From: Polyangia bacterium
GTDB lineage: Bacteria; Myxococcota_A; Polyangia; Fen-1088
Reading direction: 5' to 3'
Assembly (NCBI GenBank): GCA_036267635.1
Contig: DATAVR010000017.1
Location: 2,912-66,911 of the forward strand
Length of the DNA: 64,000 bases
Shown: piece after piece, positions 20,088 to 31,990 of the stretch
Layout of the letters: each line of letters starts with the position of its first letter
Position numbering within the stretch: the stretch's first letter is position 1
Translations under genes and position numbers: made by a program
Notes under the pieces: model-generated
What the model was told of the DNA's origin: nothing
The model's input: the letters and a program-made list of their open reading frames with translations, nothing else
Database searches by the model: none

Positions 20088-20417
20088 ATGGAAGAGACTG
20101 CGTTCAATCCCAAACGGCGCCTCTGCCCCGACGGCAGCTGCGTGGGCGTCCTTGGTGCCGACGGGCGCTGCAGCGTTTGCCGGCGCTCCGCGGGAGCGGG
20201 TGGCGACTCGCCAGCTGAGTCGTTTGCCGATTCGTCCGGCGATACGTCTGCTGAGATCTTGGCCGCCGCCGGCGATGACGACGCGCGCGCCTCCGAGAGA
20301 GGGGACGGAGCGAGCTCCGGCTTCGATCCGAGGCGCCGGCTGTGTGACGACGGGAGCTGCGTCGGCGTGGTGGGCGCCACCGGAGTCTGTGGCACCTGCG
20401 GTCGGAGAGCGGACTAG
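20088..20417 (+). CDS. Small protein with duplicated 4-Cys motif (putative double zinc finger)
   Basis: FNPKRRLCPDGSCVGVLGADGRCSVC and FDPRRRLCDDGSCVGVVGATGVCGTC joined by an acidic linker. Confidence 0.72.
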   Translation: MEETAFNPKRRLCPDGSCVGVLGADGRCSVCRRSAGAGGDSPAESFADSSGDTSAEILAAAGDDDARASERGDGASSGFDPRRRLCDDGSCVGVVGATGVCGTCGRRAD

Positions 20418-20418
20418 C

Positions 20419-20778
20419 GTGCCGAGCGTCGCTGTCGTCGGGGCCTCGAGCGCACCGCAGAAGTTCGGCAACAAGGCGGTCCGCGCCTACCTGCGCCGGG
20501 GCTGGACGGTCTACCCGGTGAATCCCAACGAAAAGACGATCGAAGGGCTGCCGGTCTACGCCCGCGTCGAGGATCTGCCGGCCGGCGTGGAGCGCTTCTC
20601 GCTCTACGTGCCGCCCTCCGTCGGGATCACGCTGCTGGAGGCGATCAAGAGCAAGCAGCCGAAGGAGGTCTATCTCAACCCGGGCTCCGAGAGCGACGAG
20701 CTCATCGCCCGCGCCGAGACGTTGGGCCTGGAACCGATCCTCGCCTGTTCGATCATCGAGATCGGCGAGCGGCCTTGA
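20419..20778 (+). CDS. CoA-binding domain protein (YccU-like)
   Basis: VAVVGAS..PQKFG.KAV......G.TVYPVNP....IEG, LNPG, C..I; GTG start 1 nt after the upstream stop. Confidence 0.85.
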   Translation: MPSVAVVGASSAPQKFGNKAVRAYLRRGWTVYPVNPNEKTIEGLPVYARVEDLPAGVERFSLYVPPSVGITLLEAIKSKQPKEVYLNPGSESDELIARAETLGLEPILACSIIEIGERP

Positions 20779-20797
20779 GCTAATCTCGCGCGCCTCG

Positions 20798-21730
20798 ATG
20801 CCGGCTTACGCGGTCAACAGCATGCTCGATCTCATCGGCGGGACGCCGCTGGTGAGGCTGCGCCACCTCGTCGACCCGACGATGGCCGACGTGTTCTGCA
20901 AGTGCGAGCAGTTCAACCCGGGCGGTTCGCTCAAGGATCGGGTGGCGCTCTCGATGATCGAGGCGGGCGAGCGCGACGGAAAGCTCACGCCGGGAGAGTC
21001 GGTGATCATCGAGCCGACCTCCGGCAACACCGGCGTCGGGCTGGCGCTGGTGTCGGCGGCCAAGCGCTATCGCCTCATCCTGACAATGCCCGACAACATG
21101 TCGCTCGAGCGGCGCGCGCTGCTCAAGGCCTACGGGGCCGAGCTGCACCTGACGCCGGCGGCGGCGGTCATGCGCGGCGCGGTCGAGCGCGCCCAAGAAC
21201 TCGCCCGCGATTACCCGCACGCCTTCATGCCGCAGCAATTCAACAACCCGGCCAACGTCGCCGCGCACTACCGCACGACGGGCCCCGAGATCGTCGCCCA
21301 GCTCGGCAACCGCAGCCCGGACGCCTTCGTGCACGGCGTGGGGACGGGCGGGACGATCACCGGCGTCGGGCGGGTGCTGCGGGAGCTGCGCCCCGACGTG
21401 CGCATCGTGGCGGTCGAGCCGGACAAGAGCGCCGTGCTGTCGGGCGGACCGCCGGGCGAGCACCGGATCGACGGCATCGGCGCCGGGTTCGTGCCGGCCA
21501 TCCTCGACAGAGCCGTGCTCTCGGAGGTGCGGACGATCTCCGAAGGCGACGCGCAGCGGACCAAGCTGGCGCTGGCGCGGCGCGAGGGGCTGCTGGTCGG
21601 CATCTCCGCCGGCGCCTCGGTGAAGATCGCGCTCGACGTCGCGCGCGAGCTCGGGCCCGGCAAGACCGTCGTCACCATCCTCTGCGACACCGGCGAGCGG
21701 TACTTCTCGTCGGACGCCTATTTCGAGTAA
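20798..21730 (+). CDS. cysK: Cysteine synthase A (PLP)
   Basis: NPGGSLKDR (PLP Lys), EPTSGNTG, QQFNNPAN, GVGTGGT, H.I.GIGAGF.P, DTGERY.S. Confidence 0.9.
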   Translation: MPAYAVNSMLDLIGGTPLVRLRHLVDPTMADVFCKCEQFNPGGSLKDRVALSMIEAGERDGKLTPGESVIIEPTSGNTGVGLALVSAAKRYRLILTMPDNMSLERRALLKAYGAELHLTPAAAVMRGAVERAQELARDYPHAFMPQQFNNPANVAAHYRTTGPEIVAQLGNRSPDAFVHGVGTGGTITGVGRVLRELRPDVRIVAVEPDKSAVLSGGPPGEHRIDGIGAGFVPAILDRAVLSEVRTISEGDAQRTKLALARREGLLVGISAGASVKIALDVARELGPGKTVVTILCDTGERYFSSDAYFE

Positions 21731-21740
21731 GGGGCCGCGA

Positions 21741-22472
21741 GTGAGCTCCCCGCCGGCCGTGTTGATCCTGGGGGCCGGCGGTCTCGGCTGTCCGGCGGCG
21801 CTGGCGCTGGCGGCGGGCGGCGTCGCGCGGATCGGCGTGGTCGACGACGACCGCGTCGACACCACGAACCTCCACCGCCAGATCCTGTTTTCCGACGCCG
21901 ACGTCGGTGAAGCGAAGGCGACCGCGTTCGCGCGGGCCCTGGCCCGGCGTTTTCCGACCGTCGAGGTGACGCCGCACGCCGTTCGCTTCGAGGTGGAGAA
22001 CGCGCGGGCGCTGGTCGCCGCGTATGACGTCATCGTCGACGGGACCGACAACTTCGCGGCCAAGTTCCTGGCCAACGACGCGGCCGTGCTCTGCGGCAAA
22101 CCGCTGGTCCACGGTGCCGCGGTCGCGCTGGGGGGGCAGATGCTCACCGTCCCCGCCGGCGGGCGCCCCTGTTACCGGTGCCTCTTCGAGGAGCCGCCCC
22201 CTGCGGGCGTCGGCCCCTCGTGTGCGGAAGCTGGCGTGCTGGGTCCGGTGCCGGGCGTCATCGGAGCCTTGCTGGGGGTGGAGGCCGCCCGGCTGGCCAA
22301 AGGCGAAACTCCCGCTTTCGTTGGGCGATTGGTCCAGTATGATTCCCGTTCGATGTCGGTCCGGACCGTCCGCTTCAACCCCAACCCGCTGTGCGCCGTC
22401 TGCGGCCCCGAGGCGCGCATCCGCGACCTGTCGGCCGCCGAGTACCCGGCCGCTGACTGTGCAACACCATGA
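21741..22472 (+). CDS. moeB: ThiF/MoeB-family adenylyltransferase (E1-like), catalytic motifs intact, N-terminal RYxRQ helix absent
   Basis: GAGGLG, DDDRVD.TNLHRQ, K, DGTDN, CYRC, SCAEAGV, CAVC; no rhodanese domain. Confidence 0.88.
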   Translation: MSSPPAVLILGAGGLGCPAALALAAGGVARIGVVDDDRVDTTNLHRQILFSDADVGEAKATAFARALARRFPTVEVTPHAVRFEVENARALVAAYDVIVDGTDNFAAKFLANDAAVLCGKPLVHGAAVALGGQMLTVPAGGRPCYRCLFEEPPPAGVGPSCAEAGVLGPVPGVIGALLGVEAARLAKGETPAFVGRLVQYDSRSMSVRTVRFNPNPLCAVCGPEARIRDLSAAEYPAADCATP

Positions 22473-23740
22473 GCACCGCCCCCGCCATGAACCAACCCTC
22501 GTACGTCCAGGGACTCAGCTGCCGTGAGTGCGGCACGCGCTACGACAAGGCCCCCATCCACGTCTGCGAAAACTGCTTCGGCCCGCTCGAGGTCGCCTAC
22601 GACTACGCCCGCATCGGCCAGGTGCTGACCCGCACCGCGATCGAGGCGCGTCCGAAGTCGATGTGGCGCTACGCCGAGCTGCTGCCGCTCGACGGTCCGC
22701 CCGCGGTCGGGCAGGCGAGCGGGATGACGCCGCTCCTGCGCGCCGATCGCCTGGCCAAGCGGCTCGGGCTCAAGGAGGTGTGGGTGAAGAACGACGCCGT
22801 CAGCTACCCGACGCTGTCGTTCAAGGATCGCGTCGTCTCGGTCGCGGTGTCGAAGGCGATCGAGTTCGGCATCGGCACCATCGCCTGCGCCTCGACCGGA
22901 AACCTGGCCAACGCCACCGCCGCCCAGGCCGCCGCGGCGGGGCTGCCGGCCGTCATCCTGGTCCCCTACGATCTCGAGCCGGCCAAGATCCTCGGCACCA
23001 GCATCTACGGCGCGCGCGTGGTCAGCGTCAAAGGGACCTACGACGACGTCAACCGGTTGTGCTCGGAGATCGCCGGTAAGTACGGCTGGGGCTTCGTCAA
23101 CGTCAACCTCCGCCCGTTCTATGCCGAGGGCTCCAAGAGCTACGCCTACGAGATCGCCGAGCAGCTCGGCTGGCGGCTGCCGGCGCACGTCGTCGTCCCC
23201 ATGGCCGGCGGCTCGCTGGTGACCAAGGTGGGCAAGGCGTTCGGCGAATTCGAGAAGTTGGGCCTCGTCGCGGCGCCCGCGCGCAAGCCGCGCATCCACG
23301 GCGCCCAGGCCGAGGGGTGCGCGCCGATCATCGACATGGTGCTCGAGAACCGCGATCATGTCCGGCCGGTCAAGACGCCGACGAGCATCGCCAAGTCGCT
23401 GGCCATCGGTAACCCGGCCGACGGCTTCTATGCCCGCCAGACGATCATCGGCTCGGGCGGCTGGGCCGCCAAGCCGAACGACGACGAGATCATCGCCGCC
23501 ATGCGCCTCCTGGCCGAGACCGAGGGGATCTTCACCGAGACGGCCGGCGGGGTGACGCTCGGCGCGGCGCTCAAGCTGATCGCCGGCGGTCAGATCGGCA
23601 AGGACGACGGGCCGGTGGTCATCTGCATCACCGGCAACGGGATGAAGACGCAGGACCCGCTGGTCGGCAAGCTGCCCAAGCCGGCGCTGATCGGCCCGCG
23701 CCTCGGTGATTTCGACGATCTGCAGGCGACCTGGACCTGA
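22469..23740 (+). CDS. thrC: Threonine synthase-family PLP enzyme with N-terminal Zn ribbon
   Basis: CREC...C..CFGPL, PT.SFKDR, STGNLA, N.RP.Y.EG.K, P.AGG.L, ETAGG, ITGNG.K; the true substrate is not certain. Confidence 0.8.
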   Translation: MSTAPAMNQPSYVQGLSCRECGTRYDKAPIHVCENCFGPLEVAYDYARIGQVLTRTAIEARPKSMWRYAELLPLDGPPAVGQASGMTPLLRADRLAKRLGLKEVWVKNDAVSYPTLSFKDRVVSVAVSKAIEFGIGTIACASTGNLANATAAQAAAAGLPAVILVPYDLEPAKILGTSIYGARVVSVKGTYDDVNRLCSEIAGKYGWGFVNVNLRPFYAEGSKSYAYEIAEQLGWRLPAHVVVPMAGGSLVTKVGKAFGEFEKLGLVAAPARKPRIHGAQAEGCAPIIDMVLENRDHVRPVKTPTSIAKSLAIGNPADGFYARQTIIGSGGWAAKPNDDEIIAAMRLLAETEGIFTETAGGVTLGAALKLIAGGQIGKDDGPVVICITGNGMKTQDPLVGKLPKPALIGPRLGDFDDLQATWT

Positions 23741-23764
23741 CCTGGACCCAAGAGGAGAGAATTC

Positions 23765-24037
23765 ATGGCCACCATCCGCATACCGACGCCGCTTCGCAAG
23801 CTGACCCAGGGCAAGGAAGAGGTCACCGCGACGGGCGCCACGATCGGCGCCCTCATCGCCAGCCTGGAGACGCAGTACCCGGGGATCAAGGAGCGGATCT
23901 GCGACGACAGCGGTCAGGTCCGCCGCTTCGTCAACATCTTCGCCAACGACGAAGACATCCGCTTCCTCAAGAATCTCGACACGGCCGTCAAGGATACCGA
24001 CGAGATCTCGATCGTTCCGGCGATCGCCGGCGGATGA
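23765..24037 (+). CDS. MoaD/ThiS/CysO-family ubiquitin-like sulfur carrier
   Basis: IRIPTPLR..T.G, RRFVNIF.N.EDIRF, C-terminal IVPAIAGG; strong SD AGAGGAG. Confidence 0.92.
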   Translation: MATIRIPTPLRKLTQGKEEVTATGATIGALIASLETQYPGIKERICDDSGQVRRFVNIFANDEDIRFLKNLDTAVKDTDEISIVPAIAGG

Positions 24038-24597
24038 CCCCCGAAGAGGTCCAACGTTACGCGCGCCAGATCGCGCTCCCCGAAGTCGGCCCCCAAGGAC
24101 AGGCGCGGATCTGCGCCGCGCGCGTGCTGATCGTCGGCGGCGGGCTCGCCGCGGAGACGGCCGCGTCGTATCTGAAGGCCGCCGGCCTGGGCGAGGTGAT
24201 CGCGCGCGAGCTCCCTCCGGGCGACGGTGAGGCTTGGATGACGGCGTTGGCGGGAATCGATCTGGTCGTCCGCGCCGGGTTCGACGACGACGCGATGCTG
24301 GGCGCGGCCAAGCGGCTCGGGCTGCCGGTGATCGTGGTGCGGGCCGCGGCCGCGCAGATCGATCTGCTCTCGTTCCCTCGACGGGCGCCGGCGCCCGAGG
24401 CCTCCCTGGAGGTCCCGCTGCAGGCAGCCGCGACGTCCACCCCGGGCGCAGCCGACGTTCTCGGCGGAGCGCTGGCGGCCGCCGAGGCGCTGGTCCGCCT
24501 GGCGCGCATCGACGGCGAAATTGGCAGGATTCGCCACCTGCGGCTCCCCCTCGACGGCGGCCTGCCGCTGGCGCAGGAGATCGGCGGGCGGGCGTGA
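24034..24597 (+). CDS. Degenerate ThiF/MoeB-like protein (predicted catalytically inactive)
   Basis: Keeps RYARQI.LPEVG..GQ and a Rossmann-like VLIVGGG, but lacks DxD/NLxRQ, the Mg-binding Asp, the Zn-binding CxxC pairs and the active Cys. Confidence 0.8.
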   Translation: MTPEEVQRYARQIALPEVGPQGQARICAARVLIVGGGLAAETAASYLKAAGLGEVIARELPPGDGEAWMTALAGIDLVVRAGFDDDAMLGAAKRLGLPVIVVRAAAAQIDLLSFPRRAPAPEASLEVPLQAAATSTPGAADVLGGALAAAEALVRLARIDGEIGRIRHLRLPLDGGLPLAQEIGGRA

Positions 24598-25565
24598 ACC
24601 AGCAACTCGACGTCGTCCGCCGCGCGCGCCTGCGCGTCGCCGAGCGGGTCACCGACCTCATCGGCGACACGCCGATCGTGCGGCTGCATTGCTTTGAACG
24701 CGATTCGCCCGGCGTCGAGCTGTGGGCCAAGTGCGAGTTCCTCAACCCAGGCGGCTCGGTCAAGGATCGCGCCGCCTACCAGATGATCCGCGACGCCATC
24801 CGCACCGGCGCGCTCAAGCCCGGGCAGACGATCATCGACTCGACGAGCGGCAACACCGGCGTCGCCTACGCGCTCATCGGCGGCGCGCTCGGCTACCCTG
24901 TCACGCTGGTGATGCCCGGCAACGTCTCCTGGGCGCGCCGCAAGATCACCGAGGCGTTCGGGACGACGCTGGTCTTCTCCGATCCGATGGAGGGTTCCGA
25001 CGGCGCGATTCGCCTCTGCCGCAAGATGGTCGACGACAACCCCGGCCACTACTTCTATCCCGACCAGTACTCGAACCTCTCCAACCCGCTCGGCCACTAC
25101 AACACCACGGGGCGGGAGATCTGGGAGCAGACCGAGGGGCGCGTCACCCACTTCGTGACCGGCATCGGCACCACCGGCACGGTGATGGGGACCGGACGCC
25201 GGTTGAAAGAATACCGCCGCGACATCGAGGTCTGGGCGGTCGAACCCGCGGACGCGCTGCACGGCCTCGAGGGGTTGAAGCACATGGAGAGCTCGCTCGT
25301 CCCCGCCATCTACCACCCCGAAGAGCTGAACGGCGTGCTGGCCATGGACACCGACGAGGCCTGGGACGTCTCCGAGCGGCTGGCCAAGGAGGAGGGCCTC
25401 CTGGTCGGCCACTCCTCGGGCGCGTCGCTGGCGGGCGGCCTGCGCATCGCCAGGCGGCTGGTCGCCGCCGGCAAACCGGGCTTCATCGTGACGCTGTTCC
25501 CCGATCGCGCCGAGCGCTACTTCGAGGCGCCGGTCCCGCCGAAAGCCGAGCAGTCGGTCACATGA
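24594..25565 (+). CDS. cysM: Cysteine synthase B family (CysM-like)
   Basis: NPGGSVKDR, DSTSGNTG, DQY.N..N...HY.TTG, GIGTTGT, GLEGLKHM, G.SSGA; GTG overlaps the upstream TGA. Confidence 0.87.
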   Translation: MNQQLDVVRRARLRVAERVTDLIGDTPIVRLHCFERDSPGVELWAKCEFLNPGGSVKDRAAYQMIRDAIRTGALKPGQTIIDSTSGNTGVAYALIGGALGYPVTLVMPGNVSWARRKITEAFGTTLVFSDPMEGSDGAIRLCRKMVDDNPGHYFYPDQYSNLSNPLGHYNTTGREIWEQTEGRVTHFVTGIGTTGTVMGTGRRLKEYRRDIEVWAVEPADALHGLEGLKHMESSLVPAIYHPEELNGVLAMDTDEAWDVSERLAKEEGLLVGHSSGASLAGGLRIARRLVAAGKPGFIVTLFPDRAERYFEAPVPPKAEQSVT

Positions 25566-26062
25566 GCGACATCGACGTCGGCGAGCTCCCGCCGCCCCAC
25601 CCCACGGTCTCTGCCGAGGCGCTGGCGGCCATGTACGCGCACGCGCGCCGCGACTACCCCAACGAATGCTGCGGCGTCGTCTTCGGGCCCAAGGGGACGC
25701 CGGCCGCCGACCGCGCCGTCGCCTGCGTCAACACGCAGAACGATCTGCACGCGCAGGATCCGGCGACCCACGCCCGCGACGCGCGCACCGCCTACAACCT
25801 CGGCGCGGGCGATCTGTTCAAGCTCGGCAAGAGCCTGCGTGGCGACACGCCCGCCAAGATCATCTACCACTCGCACGTCGACGTCGGCGCCTACTTCAGC
25901 GACACCGACCAGGCCGCCGCCGTCATGGACGGCGAGCCCTCTTACCCGGTCGAGTACCTGGTCATCGACGTCCGCCAGGACAGCGTTGGCGGCGCCGCAC
26001 AATTCGCCTGGGACGCGGCCGCCCGCCGCTACCTCGAAGTCGGCCGCTACCCGGGCGCCTGA
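25562..26062 (+). CDS. JAB/MPN+ metallopeptidase (Mec, CysO-cysteine peptidase-like)
   Basis: YPNECCG and YHSHVDVGAYFSDTD (HxH-x7-S-x2-D JAMM motif). Confidence 0.88.
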   Translation: MSDIDVGELPPPHPTVSAEALAAMYAHARRDYPNECCGVVFGPKGTPAADRAVACVNTQNDLHAQDPATHARDARTAYNLGAGDLFKLGKSLRGDTPAKIIYHSHVDVGAYFSDTDQAAAVMDGEPSYPVEYLVIDVRQDSVGGAAQFAWDAAARRYLEVGRYPGA

Positions 26063-28604: not shown

Positions 28605-29621
28605 GTGACCGCCCCCCTCTTCCTGCGCGCCTGCCGTGGCGAGACGACCGAACGGACGCCGCTGTGGCTGATGCGGCAAGCGGGCCGCTATCTCCCCGAG
28701 TACCGGCAGGTGCGCGCGGGGGTCAGCTTTCTCGAGCTCTGCAAGACGCCCAAGCTGGCGGCGGAGGTGACGCTGCAGCCGATCCGGCGGTTCGGGTTCG
28801 ACGCCGCGATCCTGTTTTCCGATCTGCTGGTGCCGCTCGAGGCGATGGGGCTGGCGGTCGAATTCACCGACGAGGGGCCGCGGCTGCCGCAGCCGGTGCG
28901 GACCGCGGCCGATCTGGCGCGGGTGGCGCCCTTCGATCCGGCGGCGCGCACGCCGTTCGTGATGGAGACGATCGCGTCGGTCACGTCCGCGCTCGGTCCG
29001 GAGACGCCGGTCATCGGGTTCGCGGGCGCGCCGTTCACCGTCGCCACCTACGCCGTCGAAGGGAAGACCTCGAAGACCTTCGGCGAGACCAAGCGCCTTT
29101 TTTACGAGCGCCCGGCCGACGCGCACCGGCTGCTCGGCCTCATCGGCGAGGCGACGCGCGACTACCTGCTGGCCCAGATTCGCGCCGGCGCGGCGGCGGT
29201 GCAGCTGTTCGATTCGTGGGTCGGCGTGCTGTCGGCCGAGGACTTCGAGACCTTCGCGCTGCCGCCGACGACGGCGCTGGTGGCGGCGCTGCGGGCGACC
29301 GGCGTGCCGGTCATCTACTTCGCCAACGGCGCGGCGGCGATCCTCGATCGCGTGGCGCGCGTCGGGGCCGACGTCTACGGCGTCGACTGGCGGCTGCCGC
29401 TCGACGAGGCGCGCGTGCGGCTCGGCGATGCGCGCGCCGTGCAGGGGAACCTCGATCCGGCCGTCCTTCTGGGCCCGCCCGCCGAGATCGAGCGGCGCGC
29501 GCGCGACATCGTCCGGCGCGGTGGCAAGCGCGGCCACGTCTTCAACCTCGGCCACGGGATCACCCCCGACGTGCCGCTCGAGTCGGTCACTGCGCTGGTG
29601 GCCGCCGTCCGGGGCGCCTGA
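28605..29621 (+). CDS. hemE: Uroporphyrinogen decarboxylase
   Basis: P.WLMRQAGRYLPEY, DAAILFSDLL, IGFAGAPFT.A.Y, QGNLDP, FNLGHGI.P. Confidence 0.97.
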   Translation: MTAPLFLRACRGETTERTPLWLMRQAGRYLPEYRQVRAGVSFLELCKTPKLAAEVTLQPIRRFGFDAAILFSDLLVPLEAMGLAVEFTDEGPRLPQPVRTAADLARVAPFDPAARTPFVMETIASVTSALGPETPVIGFAGAPFTVATYAVEGKTSKTFGETKRLFYERPADAHRLLGLIGEATRDYLLAQIRAGAAAVQLFDSWVGVLSAEDFETFALPPTTALVAALRATGVPVIYFANGAAAILDRVARVGADVYGVDWRLPLDEARVRLGDARAVQGNLDPAVLLGPPAEIERRARDIVRRGGKRGHVFNLGHGITPDVPLESVTALVAAVRGA

Positions 29622-30637
29622 TGGCCGCCGCTGCACCGGCGGCGGCGCGCGAGAGAGAGCCGCTCGGCCTCATCGCGCTCAACCTGGGCGGCCCCGGATC
29701 GCTCGACGAGGTGGAACCGTTCCTGCGGCGGCTGTTCGGCGATCCCGACGTCATCCAGCTCGGCTGGGCGCGGCCGCTGCAACCGCTGCTCGCCTGGCTG
29801 ATCGCCCGCCGCCGGGCGGAGTTTTCGCGCGCCGCCTACGCGCAGATCGGCGGCCGCTCGCCGATCCTCGAGGAGACGACGGCCCAGGCGCGCGCGGTGG
29901 CCGAGGTTCTGGCGTCGCGCGGGATCGCCACCGTTCCCGTCGTGGCGATGGCCGCCTGGCACCCGCTGGCCGGCGCTGCGCTGGCGACGCTGGCCGCGGG
30001 CGGCGTTCGGCGCGCGGTGGCGCTGCCGTTCTATCCACAAGAGTCGCGCACCACGACCGGATCGTCGCTCGGCCAGCTCGAGGAGGCCCGCAAGCTCCAC
30101 CCGGAAATGGAGATCGCGCCGGTCACGCGTTACCCCGATGCCGAGGGCTATTTGCAGGCGGTCGTCGAGCGCATCGAGGAGGCCGCGCGCACGCTGCCGG
30201 CGGAGCACGCGGGCACCGCCCCGGTTCTGTTTTCAGCGCACGGGTTGCCGGAGTCGTACATCCGGCGCGGCGATCCATACCTCGACGACGTCCGGATCAC
30301 CGTCGAAGCGATCACCCGCCGCATGGGTCTCGGAGATCGCGCGCGGCTCTGCTTCCAGAGCCGCGTCGGCCCGCAGCGCTGGCTCAGCCCCACCACCGAG
30401 ACCGGGCTCGACGAGCTGGCCGCCGCCGGCCGGCCCGCCGTCATCGTCGTCCCCATCGCCTTCACCGGCGAGCACATCGAGACGCTGCAAGAGATCGACA
30501 TCCTCTACCGCGAGCGCGCCGAGAAGGCCGGCATCATCTACTTCGCCCGCGCCCGCACCGTCGGCACCCACCCGGCCTTCATCGCAACGCTGGCGGACCT
30601 GACCGAGGCCGCCGCCCGCGCGCGCGGCTGGACCTAG
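29621..30637 (+). CDS. hemH: Ferrochelatase
   Basis: LNLGGP, Y.QIGG.SP, PFYPQ.S..TTGSS, LFSAHGLP, GDPY, FQSRVGP..WL.P, F..EHIETL.EID. Confidence 0.93.
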   Translation: MAAAAPAAAREREPLGLIALNLGGPGSLDEVEPFLRRLFGDPDVIQLGWARPLQPLLAWLIARRRAEFSRAAYAQIGGRSPILEETTAQARAVAEVLASRGIATVPVVAMAAWHPLAGAALATLAAGGVRRAVALPFYPQESRTTTGSSLGQLEEARKLHPEMEIAPVTRYPDAEGYLQAVVERIEEAARTLPAEHAGTAPVLFSAHGLPESYIRRGDPYLDDVRITVEAITRRMGLGDRARLCFQSRVGPQRWLSPTTETGLDELAAAGRPAVIVVPIAFTGEHIETLQEIDILYRERAEKAGIIYFARARTVGTHPAFIATLADLTEAAARARGWT

Positions 30638-30646
30638 GGTCAGCGC

Positions 30647-31990
30647 GTGCGCATCGCGATCATCGGCGGCGGCATCTCGGGGCTGACGGCCGCTCACCTG
30701 CTCGCGGGCGGCGGTCATGACGTGGTGCTGATCGACGAGGCGCCCGAGCCGGGCGGCCTCGTCTCCAGCCCGCGCGTAGAGGGGTTTCTCTGCGAGCGCG
30801 GCCCGCAGGCGGTGCTCGACGGCTCGGACGAGACGCGGGCGCTCATCGCCAGCGCCGGCCTCGAGCCGCGGATCGTGCGCGCCCTCCCCGCTTCCCGCCG
30901 CCGGTCGGTCTACCTGGCGGGTCGATTGCGGCCGTTCCCGGCCGGCCCGCCGGCGCTGCTCAAGACCGACCTCTTCAGCGCGGGCGGCAAGCTGCGGCTC
31001 CTCGGCGAGCCGTTCGTCCGCCGCCGCGCCGAGGGCGCGGAAGACGACGAATCGGTGTTCGACTTCGTGGCGCGCCGGTTCGGACGGCAAGCCGCCGAGC
31101 GCGCGGCGGGGCCGGCCCTCATCGGCATCTACGCGGGCGACGCCACCGCGCTGTCGCTGCGCGCAGCTTTTCCGCGGCTGGCCGCGCTCGAGCGCGAGCA
31201 CGGCAGCGTCCTCCGCGGCCTGTTTCGCACCCGCGGCAGGAGCCGGCTCGGCCGGCCGGTCTCGTTCCCCGACGGCCTCTCGGAGCTGCCGCGCGCGCTG
31301 GCGGCGACGCTCGGGTCACGACGGCGCGTCGCGACGGCCGGGGCCATCGAACCGGCCGCCGGGGGCGGCTGGACCGTCGCGCTCGAGGGCGGCGGCGCAC
31401 CGATCGAGGCCGAGCGCCTCGTTCTCGCGACGCCCGCCGCCGCCAGCGCCGCGCTGCTGGCGCCGCACGCCCCGGCGGCGGCTGAGGCGCTCGGCGCCAT
31501 CCCGCACGCGCCGGTGGCGGTGGTCTGTCTCGGATTCCGTGCCGCCGACGCCGCCACGCTGGGGATGAATCTCGACAGCTACGGCTTCGTCGTCGCGCGC
31601 GGCGAGGGCCTCCGGCTCCTCGGCTGCCAGTTCGAGTCGTCGGTGTTCCCCGGACGGGCGCCCGACGGTGGCGTGCTGCTGCGCGCCCTCCTCGGGGGAA
31701 CCTTCGATCCGGCGCTCGTCGAGGCGGACGACCAGGTCGTGGCCGGCCAGGCGATCGGCGATCTCCGCCGTGCCGTGGGGCTCCGCCGGGAGCCCGATCT
31801 CGTTCGCGTCTGGCGGGCCCGCCCCGGGATCCCCCAGTACGACCGCGGCCACCTCGCCCGCATCCGCGCGGTCGACGACGCCGTCGCGCGCCTGCCGGGC
31901 CTGACCGTGATCGGTCAAGCCCTCCGCGGCGTCGGAATGAGCGCCTGCATCCAGACGGCCGCCGCGCTTTCCCGCGACTTCGCAACTTGA
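30647..31990 (+). CDS. hemG: Protoporphyrinogen/coproporphyrinogen oxidase (HemY-type flavoprotein)
   Basis: IIGGGISGL.AA, E.GP, GIYAGD...LS, G.G.V, SS.FP.RAP.G, IPQY..GH, G.G...C. Confidence 0.92.
   Translation: MRIAIIGGGISGLTAAHLLAGGGHDVVLIDEAPEPGGLVSSPRVEGFLCERGPQAVLDGSDETRALIASAGLEPRIVRALPASRRRSVYLAGRLRPFPAGPPALLKTDLFSAGGKLRLLGEPFVRRRAEGAEDDESVFDFVARRFGRQAAERAAGPALIGIYAGDATALSLRAAFPRLAALEREHGSVLRGLFRTRGRSRLGRPVSFPDGLSELPRALAATLGSRRRVATAGAIEPAAGGGWTVALEGGGAPIEAERLVLATPAAASAALLAPHAPAAAEALGAIPHAPVAVVCLGFRAADAATLGMNLDSYGFVVARGEGLRLLGCQFESSVFPGRAPDGGVLLRALLGGTFDPALVEADDQVVAGQAIGDLRRAVGLRREPDLVRVWRARPGIPQYDRGHLARIRAVDDAVARLPGLTVIGQALRGVGMSACIQTAAALSRDFAT

Follow-up and report, generated by a model that had tools for sequence, protein, structure and literature searches.

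The ThrC-fold enzyme encoded in the window, that is, the whole stretch of 64,000 nucleotides analyzed here, is very probably an ortholog of MetM, a thiocarboxylate-dependent homocysteine synthase, as judged from sequence identity, phylogeny, and active-site residues. Together with the adjacent sulfur carrier, it adds a new member to a system that was reported in 2024, the chemistry itself having been published. As stated in PMC13759103, the MetM of Hasebe et al. 2024 (AEM 90:e01247-24) is a threonine synthase homolog that converts O-phosphohomoserine to homocysteine, with sulfur supplied by the carrier MetO in its thiocarboxylated form and with help from Mec and MoeZ; the same text gives A0A059WBP2 and A0A059W7F4 as the Streptomyces albulus accessions for MetM and MetO, respectively. 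GapMind 2026 describes the MetM/MetO route as experimentally supported, MetM as dependent on the MetO thiocarboxylate, and its frequent misannotation as threonine synthase (PMC13759103; 10.1101/2024.10.14.618325). The named database homologs close to the window enzyme are likewise labeled "threonine synthase."

Relationship of the window enzyme to MetM

The gene, the ATG of which overlaps the moeB stop codon, encodes a 423-aa protein of the PALP fold (PF00291, E 4e-66), with the PLP lysine, K119, located within an SFKDR motif. The validated MetM of S. albulus (A0A059WBP2, encoded in the locus BHXC01000007) is 50% identical to the window enzyme (E 2e-118) and 28% identical to the other ThrC of the genome, and a search of the genome with MetM recovered the window gene as the top match. 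The threonine synthase profile TIGR00260 scores the window enzyme above its cut-off (256 bits compared to 167) but is not discriminating in this case, given that the MetM-type genes of Streptomyces also exceed the cut-off.

In quick maximum-likelihood trees, computed with SH-aLRT support and without bootstrap, an actinobacterial group including A0A059WBP2 joined the window enzyme and its relatives from myxobacterial operons in a single clade (SH-aLRT 100, stem ~0.88-0.9), apart from the actinobacterial ThrC, the plant-type ThrC, other ThrC-like groups, and the cysteate synthases of TIGR03844. The window enzyme is ~30-37% identical to the ThrC-type members of the tree and less than 26% identical to the cysteate synthases. 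Thus, the phylogenetic comparison with ThrC and cysteate synthases that had been proposed in the sequence-only reading of this DNA placed the enzyme away from both and with MetM. Threonine synthases of known structure (Thermus 1uim, Aquifex 2zsj, Mycobacterium tuberculosis 2d1f, and Arabidopsis 1e5x) and cysteate synthase share with the window enzyme fold-type II PLP chemistry and the elimination of phosphate from a phospho-amino acid, but belong to separate clades and have different conserved active-site residues.

The differences in the active site follow those of MetM. The nearly invariant ThrC residues T88, F134, S155, N157, and R160 (Thermus numbering, verified on the alignment) are replaced by L146, Y191, N213, R215, and Y218, which are the residues of MetM, and the position of Thermus N188 is occupied by G247; in Thermus ThrC, R160, T88, and S155 are involved in phosphate binding and in the product-assisted addition of water. 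Accompanying these replacements, the ThrC motif N-S-V-N-P-x-R reads N-V-N-L-R-P-F-Y in the window enzyme, and STGNT reads STGNL. At 30 diagnostic columns, which we derived from 20 MetM-type and 18 ThrC sequences as positions conserved within each set but different between the two, the window enzyme is MetM-like at 19, ThrC-like at 4, and neither at 7. The 11 of 30 columns that are not MetM-like, as well as the 50% identity to MetM, leave room for functional divergence.

The N-terminal CxxC-x11-CxxC motif (C18, C21, C33, and C36) and the position of the gene between those for an E1 and a MoaD-like carrier are as the sequence-only reading had described them. However, the Zn ribbon, which that reading took as a pointer to a function other than that of ThrC, has no diagnostic value in this respect because the real threonine synthase of the genome also starts with an N-terminal four-Cys knuckle; the motif is present in cysteate synthases as well. 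A weak match of the window enzyme to the NinF Pfam family proved to be the Cys motif itself and is also seen in the validated MetM.

The operon and its counterparts in other genomes

The gene belongs to a tightly packed plus-strand operon (20419-26062) in which stop and start codons overlap at four junctions (Table 1), and the CoA-binding protein gene at its 5' end is probably co-transcribed with the rest. Just upstream of the latter lies a small open reading frame (20088-20417) with two similar Cys-rich motifs, and translated open reading frames farther downstream in the window (28605-31990) correspond to hemE and to ferrochelatase-like and protoporphyrinogen-oxidase-like haem genes. A search of the window against Rfam at the gathering threshold yielded no SAM or other riboswitch, and a scan for sigma-70 promoters and terminators returned nothing useful.

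Table 1. Genes of the window operon and related genes elsewhere in the genome
Feature	Location	Strand or orientation	Supporting data
Small CoA-binding-domain protein	20419-20778	+	PF13380, E 2e-26
CysK-type cysteine synthase A	20798-21730	+	TIGR01139, 398 bits (cut-off 351)
MoeB/ThiF-family E1, predicted carrier adenylyltransferase	21741-22472	+	PF00899, E 9e-65, model positions 23-237
MetM-type homocysteine synthase (predicted; ThrC fold)	22469-23740	+	50% identity to MetM, clade, residues
MetO/CysO-type ubiquitin-like sulfur carrier, free Gly-Gly end	23765-24037	+	PF02597, MetO identity, CysO match
Degenerate ThiF-like protein	24034-24597	+	PF00899, model positions 1-47 only
CysM-like cysteine synthase	24594-25565	+	TIGR01138, 327 bits (below cut-off 394)
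Mec-type JAB/JAMM metallopeptidase	25562-26062	+	PF14464, E 2e-17
Plant-type threonine synthase	contig C164, 10386-14120	divergent from thrA	556 bits to Arabidopsis 1e5x (window enzyme, 104 bits); gltB then follows
Second E1, N-terminal rhodanese domain	contig C132, 30-1391		candidate carrier-loading enzyme

The carrier, a 90-aa protein of the ThiS/MoaD family (PF02597, E 1e-17) encoded 24 nt past the stop codon of the enzyme gene, is 52% identical to S. albulus MetO (BHXC01000007), and its closest PDB entry is M. tuberculosis CysO (3dwg_C, E 1e-24). Carriers of relatives bear short C-terminal extensions (GGC, GGR, GGDR, and others) in 18 of 31 matches, a count in which three loci figure twice, and such extensions would explain Mec as a trimming enzyme. 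The window carrier needs no trimming because its end is already GG. The operon E1 contains the GxGxxG motif and two CxxC motifs and has neither a rhodanese domain nor the usual N-terminal RYxRQ segment. That segment is all that is intact in the degenerate ThiF-like protein. The N-terminal ~55 aa of the latter, including RYxRQ, are the sole part that fits E1 models, and the protein is kept across the genus, with 54-77% identity in relatives; it may complement MoeB to form a two-piece E1.

CysM of M. tuberculosis is a CysO-dependent cysteine synthase (PMC3227635). In its C-terminal specificity region (residues ~180-280), the CysM-like protein of the window best matches 3dwg/3dki, with a lead of only ~3 bits, and it has Lys in place of Arg220 of the mycobacterial enzyme, the position thus being basic in both. 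The operon resembles the CysO/CysM/Mec/MoeZR system of M. tuberculosis (PMC3227635) in containing a CysO-like carrier, a CysM-like enzyme, a JAB peptidase, and an E1, but differs from it in that the carrier gene directly follows that for the ThrC-fold MetM and the operon E1 has no rhodanese domain. With the MetM/MetO system of S. albulus, it shares the order of enzyme and carrier, the clade, the active-site motifs, a separate true thrC, and the availability of an E1 and Mec, here encoded by moeB and mec of the operon itself. The host is a myxobacterium instead of Streptomyces, however, the S. albulus carrier ends in GGC and not GG, and the S. albulus locus has a SAM-I riboswitch and continues after metM-metO with genes for a cold-shock protein and GroEL, whereas the window operon combines the rhodanese-less E1, the ThiF fragment, cysK, cysM, and mec. 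Peculiar to the window is a self-contained operon without a riboswitch or a NIL protein.

The carrier gene lies directly 3' of the enzyme gene in all 27 loci from this genome and its relatives and in none of three loci of more distant ThrC-like matches (35-43% identity); the pairing is more than chance. Among actinobacterial loci with homologs of ~50% identity, a carrier match was found in 70 of 81, and all 13 that were tested, including that of S. albulus, have a SAM-I riboswitch upstream; these predicted elements tie the MetM clade to methionine. No CysM matches were detected in the actinobacterial enzyme-carrier loci examined, and Rfam gave no SAM riboswitch match in three related myxobacterial operons. 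Within the fetched flanks, the order cysK-moeB-metM-metO-thiF'-cysM is largely kept in those genus members that have the enzyme (22 of 24) and also in four other families, with mec following cysM at the end of the operon in the three wider loci checked, from three other families. In one relative (G026, locus L176), the MoeB and ThiF segments both map to one continuous MoeB region.

A MetM-type enzyme is carried by 26 of 28 relatives, and only one of the 28 has metA/metY and none a strong metX; the weak MetX-like matches in six of them score ~100 bits, compared to at least 360 bits within the top-scoring group of the phylum sample. These relatives are kin, hence non-independent, and their genomes are incomplete, so that the rarity of metA, metX, and metY is consistent with MetM being the source of homocysteine but is no proof of it. 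In the wider phylum, the enzyme was present in 1 of 150 sampled genomes, which renders a co-occurrence test against metX uninformative. A metY-metA pair accompanies metM-metO in a genus relative (G003, contig C1, 96218-98307), perhaps as a recent gain. A different ThrC-like subfamily is encoded amid sulfonate, cysteine, and sulfate transport genes on the Aliarcobacter cibarius plasmid pACIB (4998-6197), a context suggestive of additional functions of this fold in sulfur metabolism, outside threonine synthesis.

Threonine and methionine genes and competing assignments

Two genes of the genome score above the TIGR00260 cut-off, the window gene and the plant-type gene on C164, so that the search for another thrC suggested in the sequence-only reading did find a second one, and the window gene is not the only candidate. 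The C164 gene stands back to back with thrA, which encodes an aspartokinase-homoserine dehydrogenase, and threonine is predicted to be made by this separate plant-type ThrC; the suspicion that the window enzyme is not the threonine synthase of the cell is thereby upheld as probable, together with the MetM clade and residues. As had been noted, no hom or thrB is found near the enzyme, or indeed anywhere on the window contig. A candidate type II homoserine kinase, scoring below the cut-off, is encoded on contig C157 and could supply O-phosphohomoserine; GHMP-type thrB, HomK, and ThrH were not found in the genome.

The genome encodes MetH and MetF, and none of MetA, MetX, MetY, and MetE was found, which, at 90% completeness, leaves their absence unproven. 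MetM would fill the homocysteine gap left without metA, metX, and metY. The sole gene for a PLP enzyme of Cys/Met metabolism directly follows the 3' end of the cystathionine beta-synthase gene, a context consistent with the reverse route from homocysteine to cysteine, although by NCBIfam a gamma-synthase role is possible. The cystathionine beta-synthase gene appears to be split between contigs C66 (1-861) and C51 (20574-22292), which probably adjoin, and the next gene is cystathionine gamma-lyase-like. Also encoded are IscS-like proteins and, for sulfate assimilation, cysDN, cysH, and a sulfite reductase-like gene. The CysK/CysM/CBS family comprises six paralogs, distributed over contigs C32, C66, C72, C129, and the window; the C32 paralog shares 70% identity with the window CysK, and its gene lies next to cysH and the sulfite reductase-like gene.

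The presence of a bona fide thrC next to thrA weighs against the best-placed competing explanation, which we consider improbable, namely, a second, or else bifunctional, threonine synthase that perhaps also acts as a threonine deaminase, with the carrier, E1, and Mec serving CysM only, in the manner of mec-cysO-cysM. The carrier could indeed serve only the co-encoded CysM, as its top PDB match to CysO and the cysM and mec genes of the operon might suggest, and the enzyme does pass the thrC cut-off. A precedent comes from Microcystis aeruginosa PCC7806, for which the accessible part of the report (PMC12172450) describes a "ThrC" and a carrier, respectively 51.6% and 47% identical to MetM and MetO; this "ThrC" reportedly formed some threonine from OPHS and deaminated threonine, with 2-oxobutyrate as an in vitro product, and its behavior in vivo was judged to fall short of that of a full MetM, the assay described there having used Na2S and not the loaded carrier. 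By the description in that text, the Microcystis locus is like that of the window in the adjacent carrier, the absence of a SAM riboswitch, and a second, canonical thrC, the difference being that its enzyme is reported as a threonine synthase/deaminase (PMC12172450). Its lack of the riboswitch also means that this element, typical of actinobacterial members, is not defining for MetM/MetO. Against a threonine synthase stand, furthermore, the replacement of conserved ThrC residues of the active site, among them the counterpart of R160, by those of MetM, the SAM-controlled actinobacterial enzyme-carrier pair with no CysM match beside it, and the failure to find another homocysteine route in the genome.

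Still less probable is an O-phosphohomoserine sulfhydrylase that mainly uses free sulfide, or makes cystathionine from cysteine, and for which the carrier would be dispensable: free sulfide should be available given the sulfate assimilation genes, but the enzyme is accompanied by the carrier in 27 of 27 myxobacterial-type and 70 of 81 actinobacterial loci, and GapMind gives MetM as dependent on the MetO thiocarboxylate (PMC13759103). A cysteate synthase or another enzyme adding sulfur to O-phosphoserine (sulfite giving cysteate, the carrier giving cysteine) is the least credible option, for all that the fold and the N-terminal Cys motif are common to TIGR03844 and the operon is one for cysteine synthesis, since the TIGR03844 score is far below the cut-off (63.5 bits compared to 324.9), the genome has no match at E 1e-60, cysteate synthases form a distant, long-branch clade, and cysK and cysM already supply cysteine synthases. 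Thus, of the sulfur additions put forward earlier, that of the carrier thiocarboxylate to O-phosphohomoserine, giving homocysteine, stands as probable through the match to MetM, whereas that of sulfite, giving cysteate, does not; the sequence-only reading had not identified the published system.

Proposed route and implications

Under the MetM assignment, ThrA and the putative type II homoserine kinase, the genes for both of which were found, would make O-phospho-L-homoserine. By analogy with the chemistry of MoeZ and CysO, an E1 would adenylate the C-terminal Gly of the carrier, and a persulfide donor would convert it to Gly-COSH; the candidates for this E1 are the operon MoeB, possibly together with the ThiF-like fragment, and the rhodanese-fused enzyme encoded on C132. 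As published work has demonstrated for MetM/MetO of S. albulus, and as expected for an ortholog, the PLP enzyme would eliminate phosphate from O-phosphohomoserine, after which the carrier thiocarboxylate, instead of water at C-beta, would add at C-gamma. Homocysteine would be released either directly or through cleavage of a carrier-homocysteine adduct by Mec, and MetH would methylate it to methionine. A more tentative and on balance doubtful extension of this scheme is that the operon is a sulfur hub, in which one carrier, loaded by the in-operon and possibly two-piece E1, feeds both MetM for homocysteine and CysM for cysteine from O-phosphoserine. In such a hub, Mec would release the products and not merely trim a carrier whose end is already GG.

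The assignment corrects a systematic misannotation, whereby MetM-type genes are labeled "threonine synthase," and suggests a route for methionine synthesis without metA, metX, and metY in these uncultured myxobacteria. The compact operon also offers a handy test bed for the question of whether a single carrier supports the synthesis of both cysteine and homocysteine.
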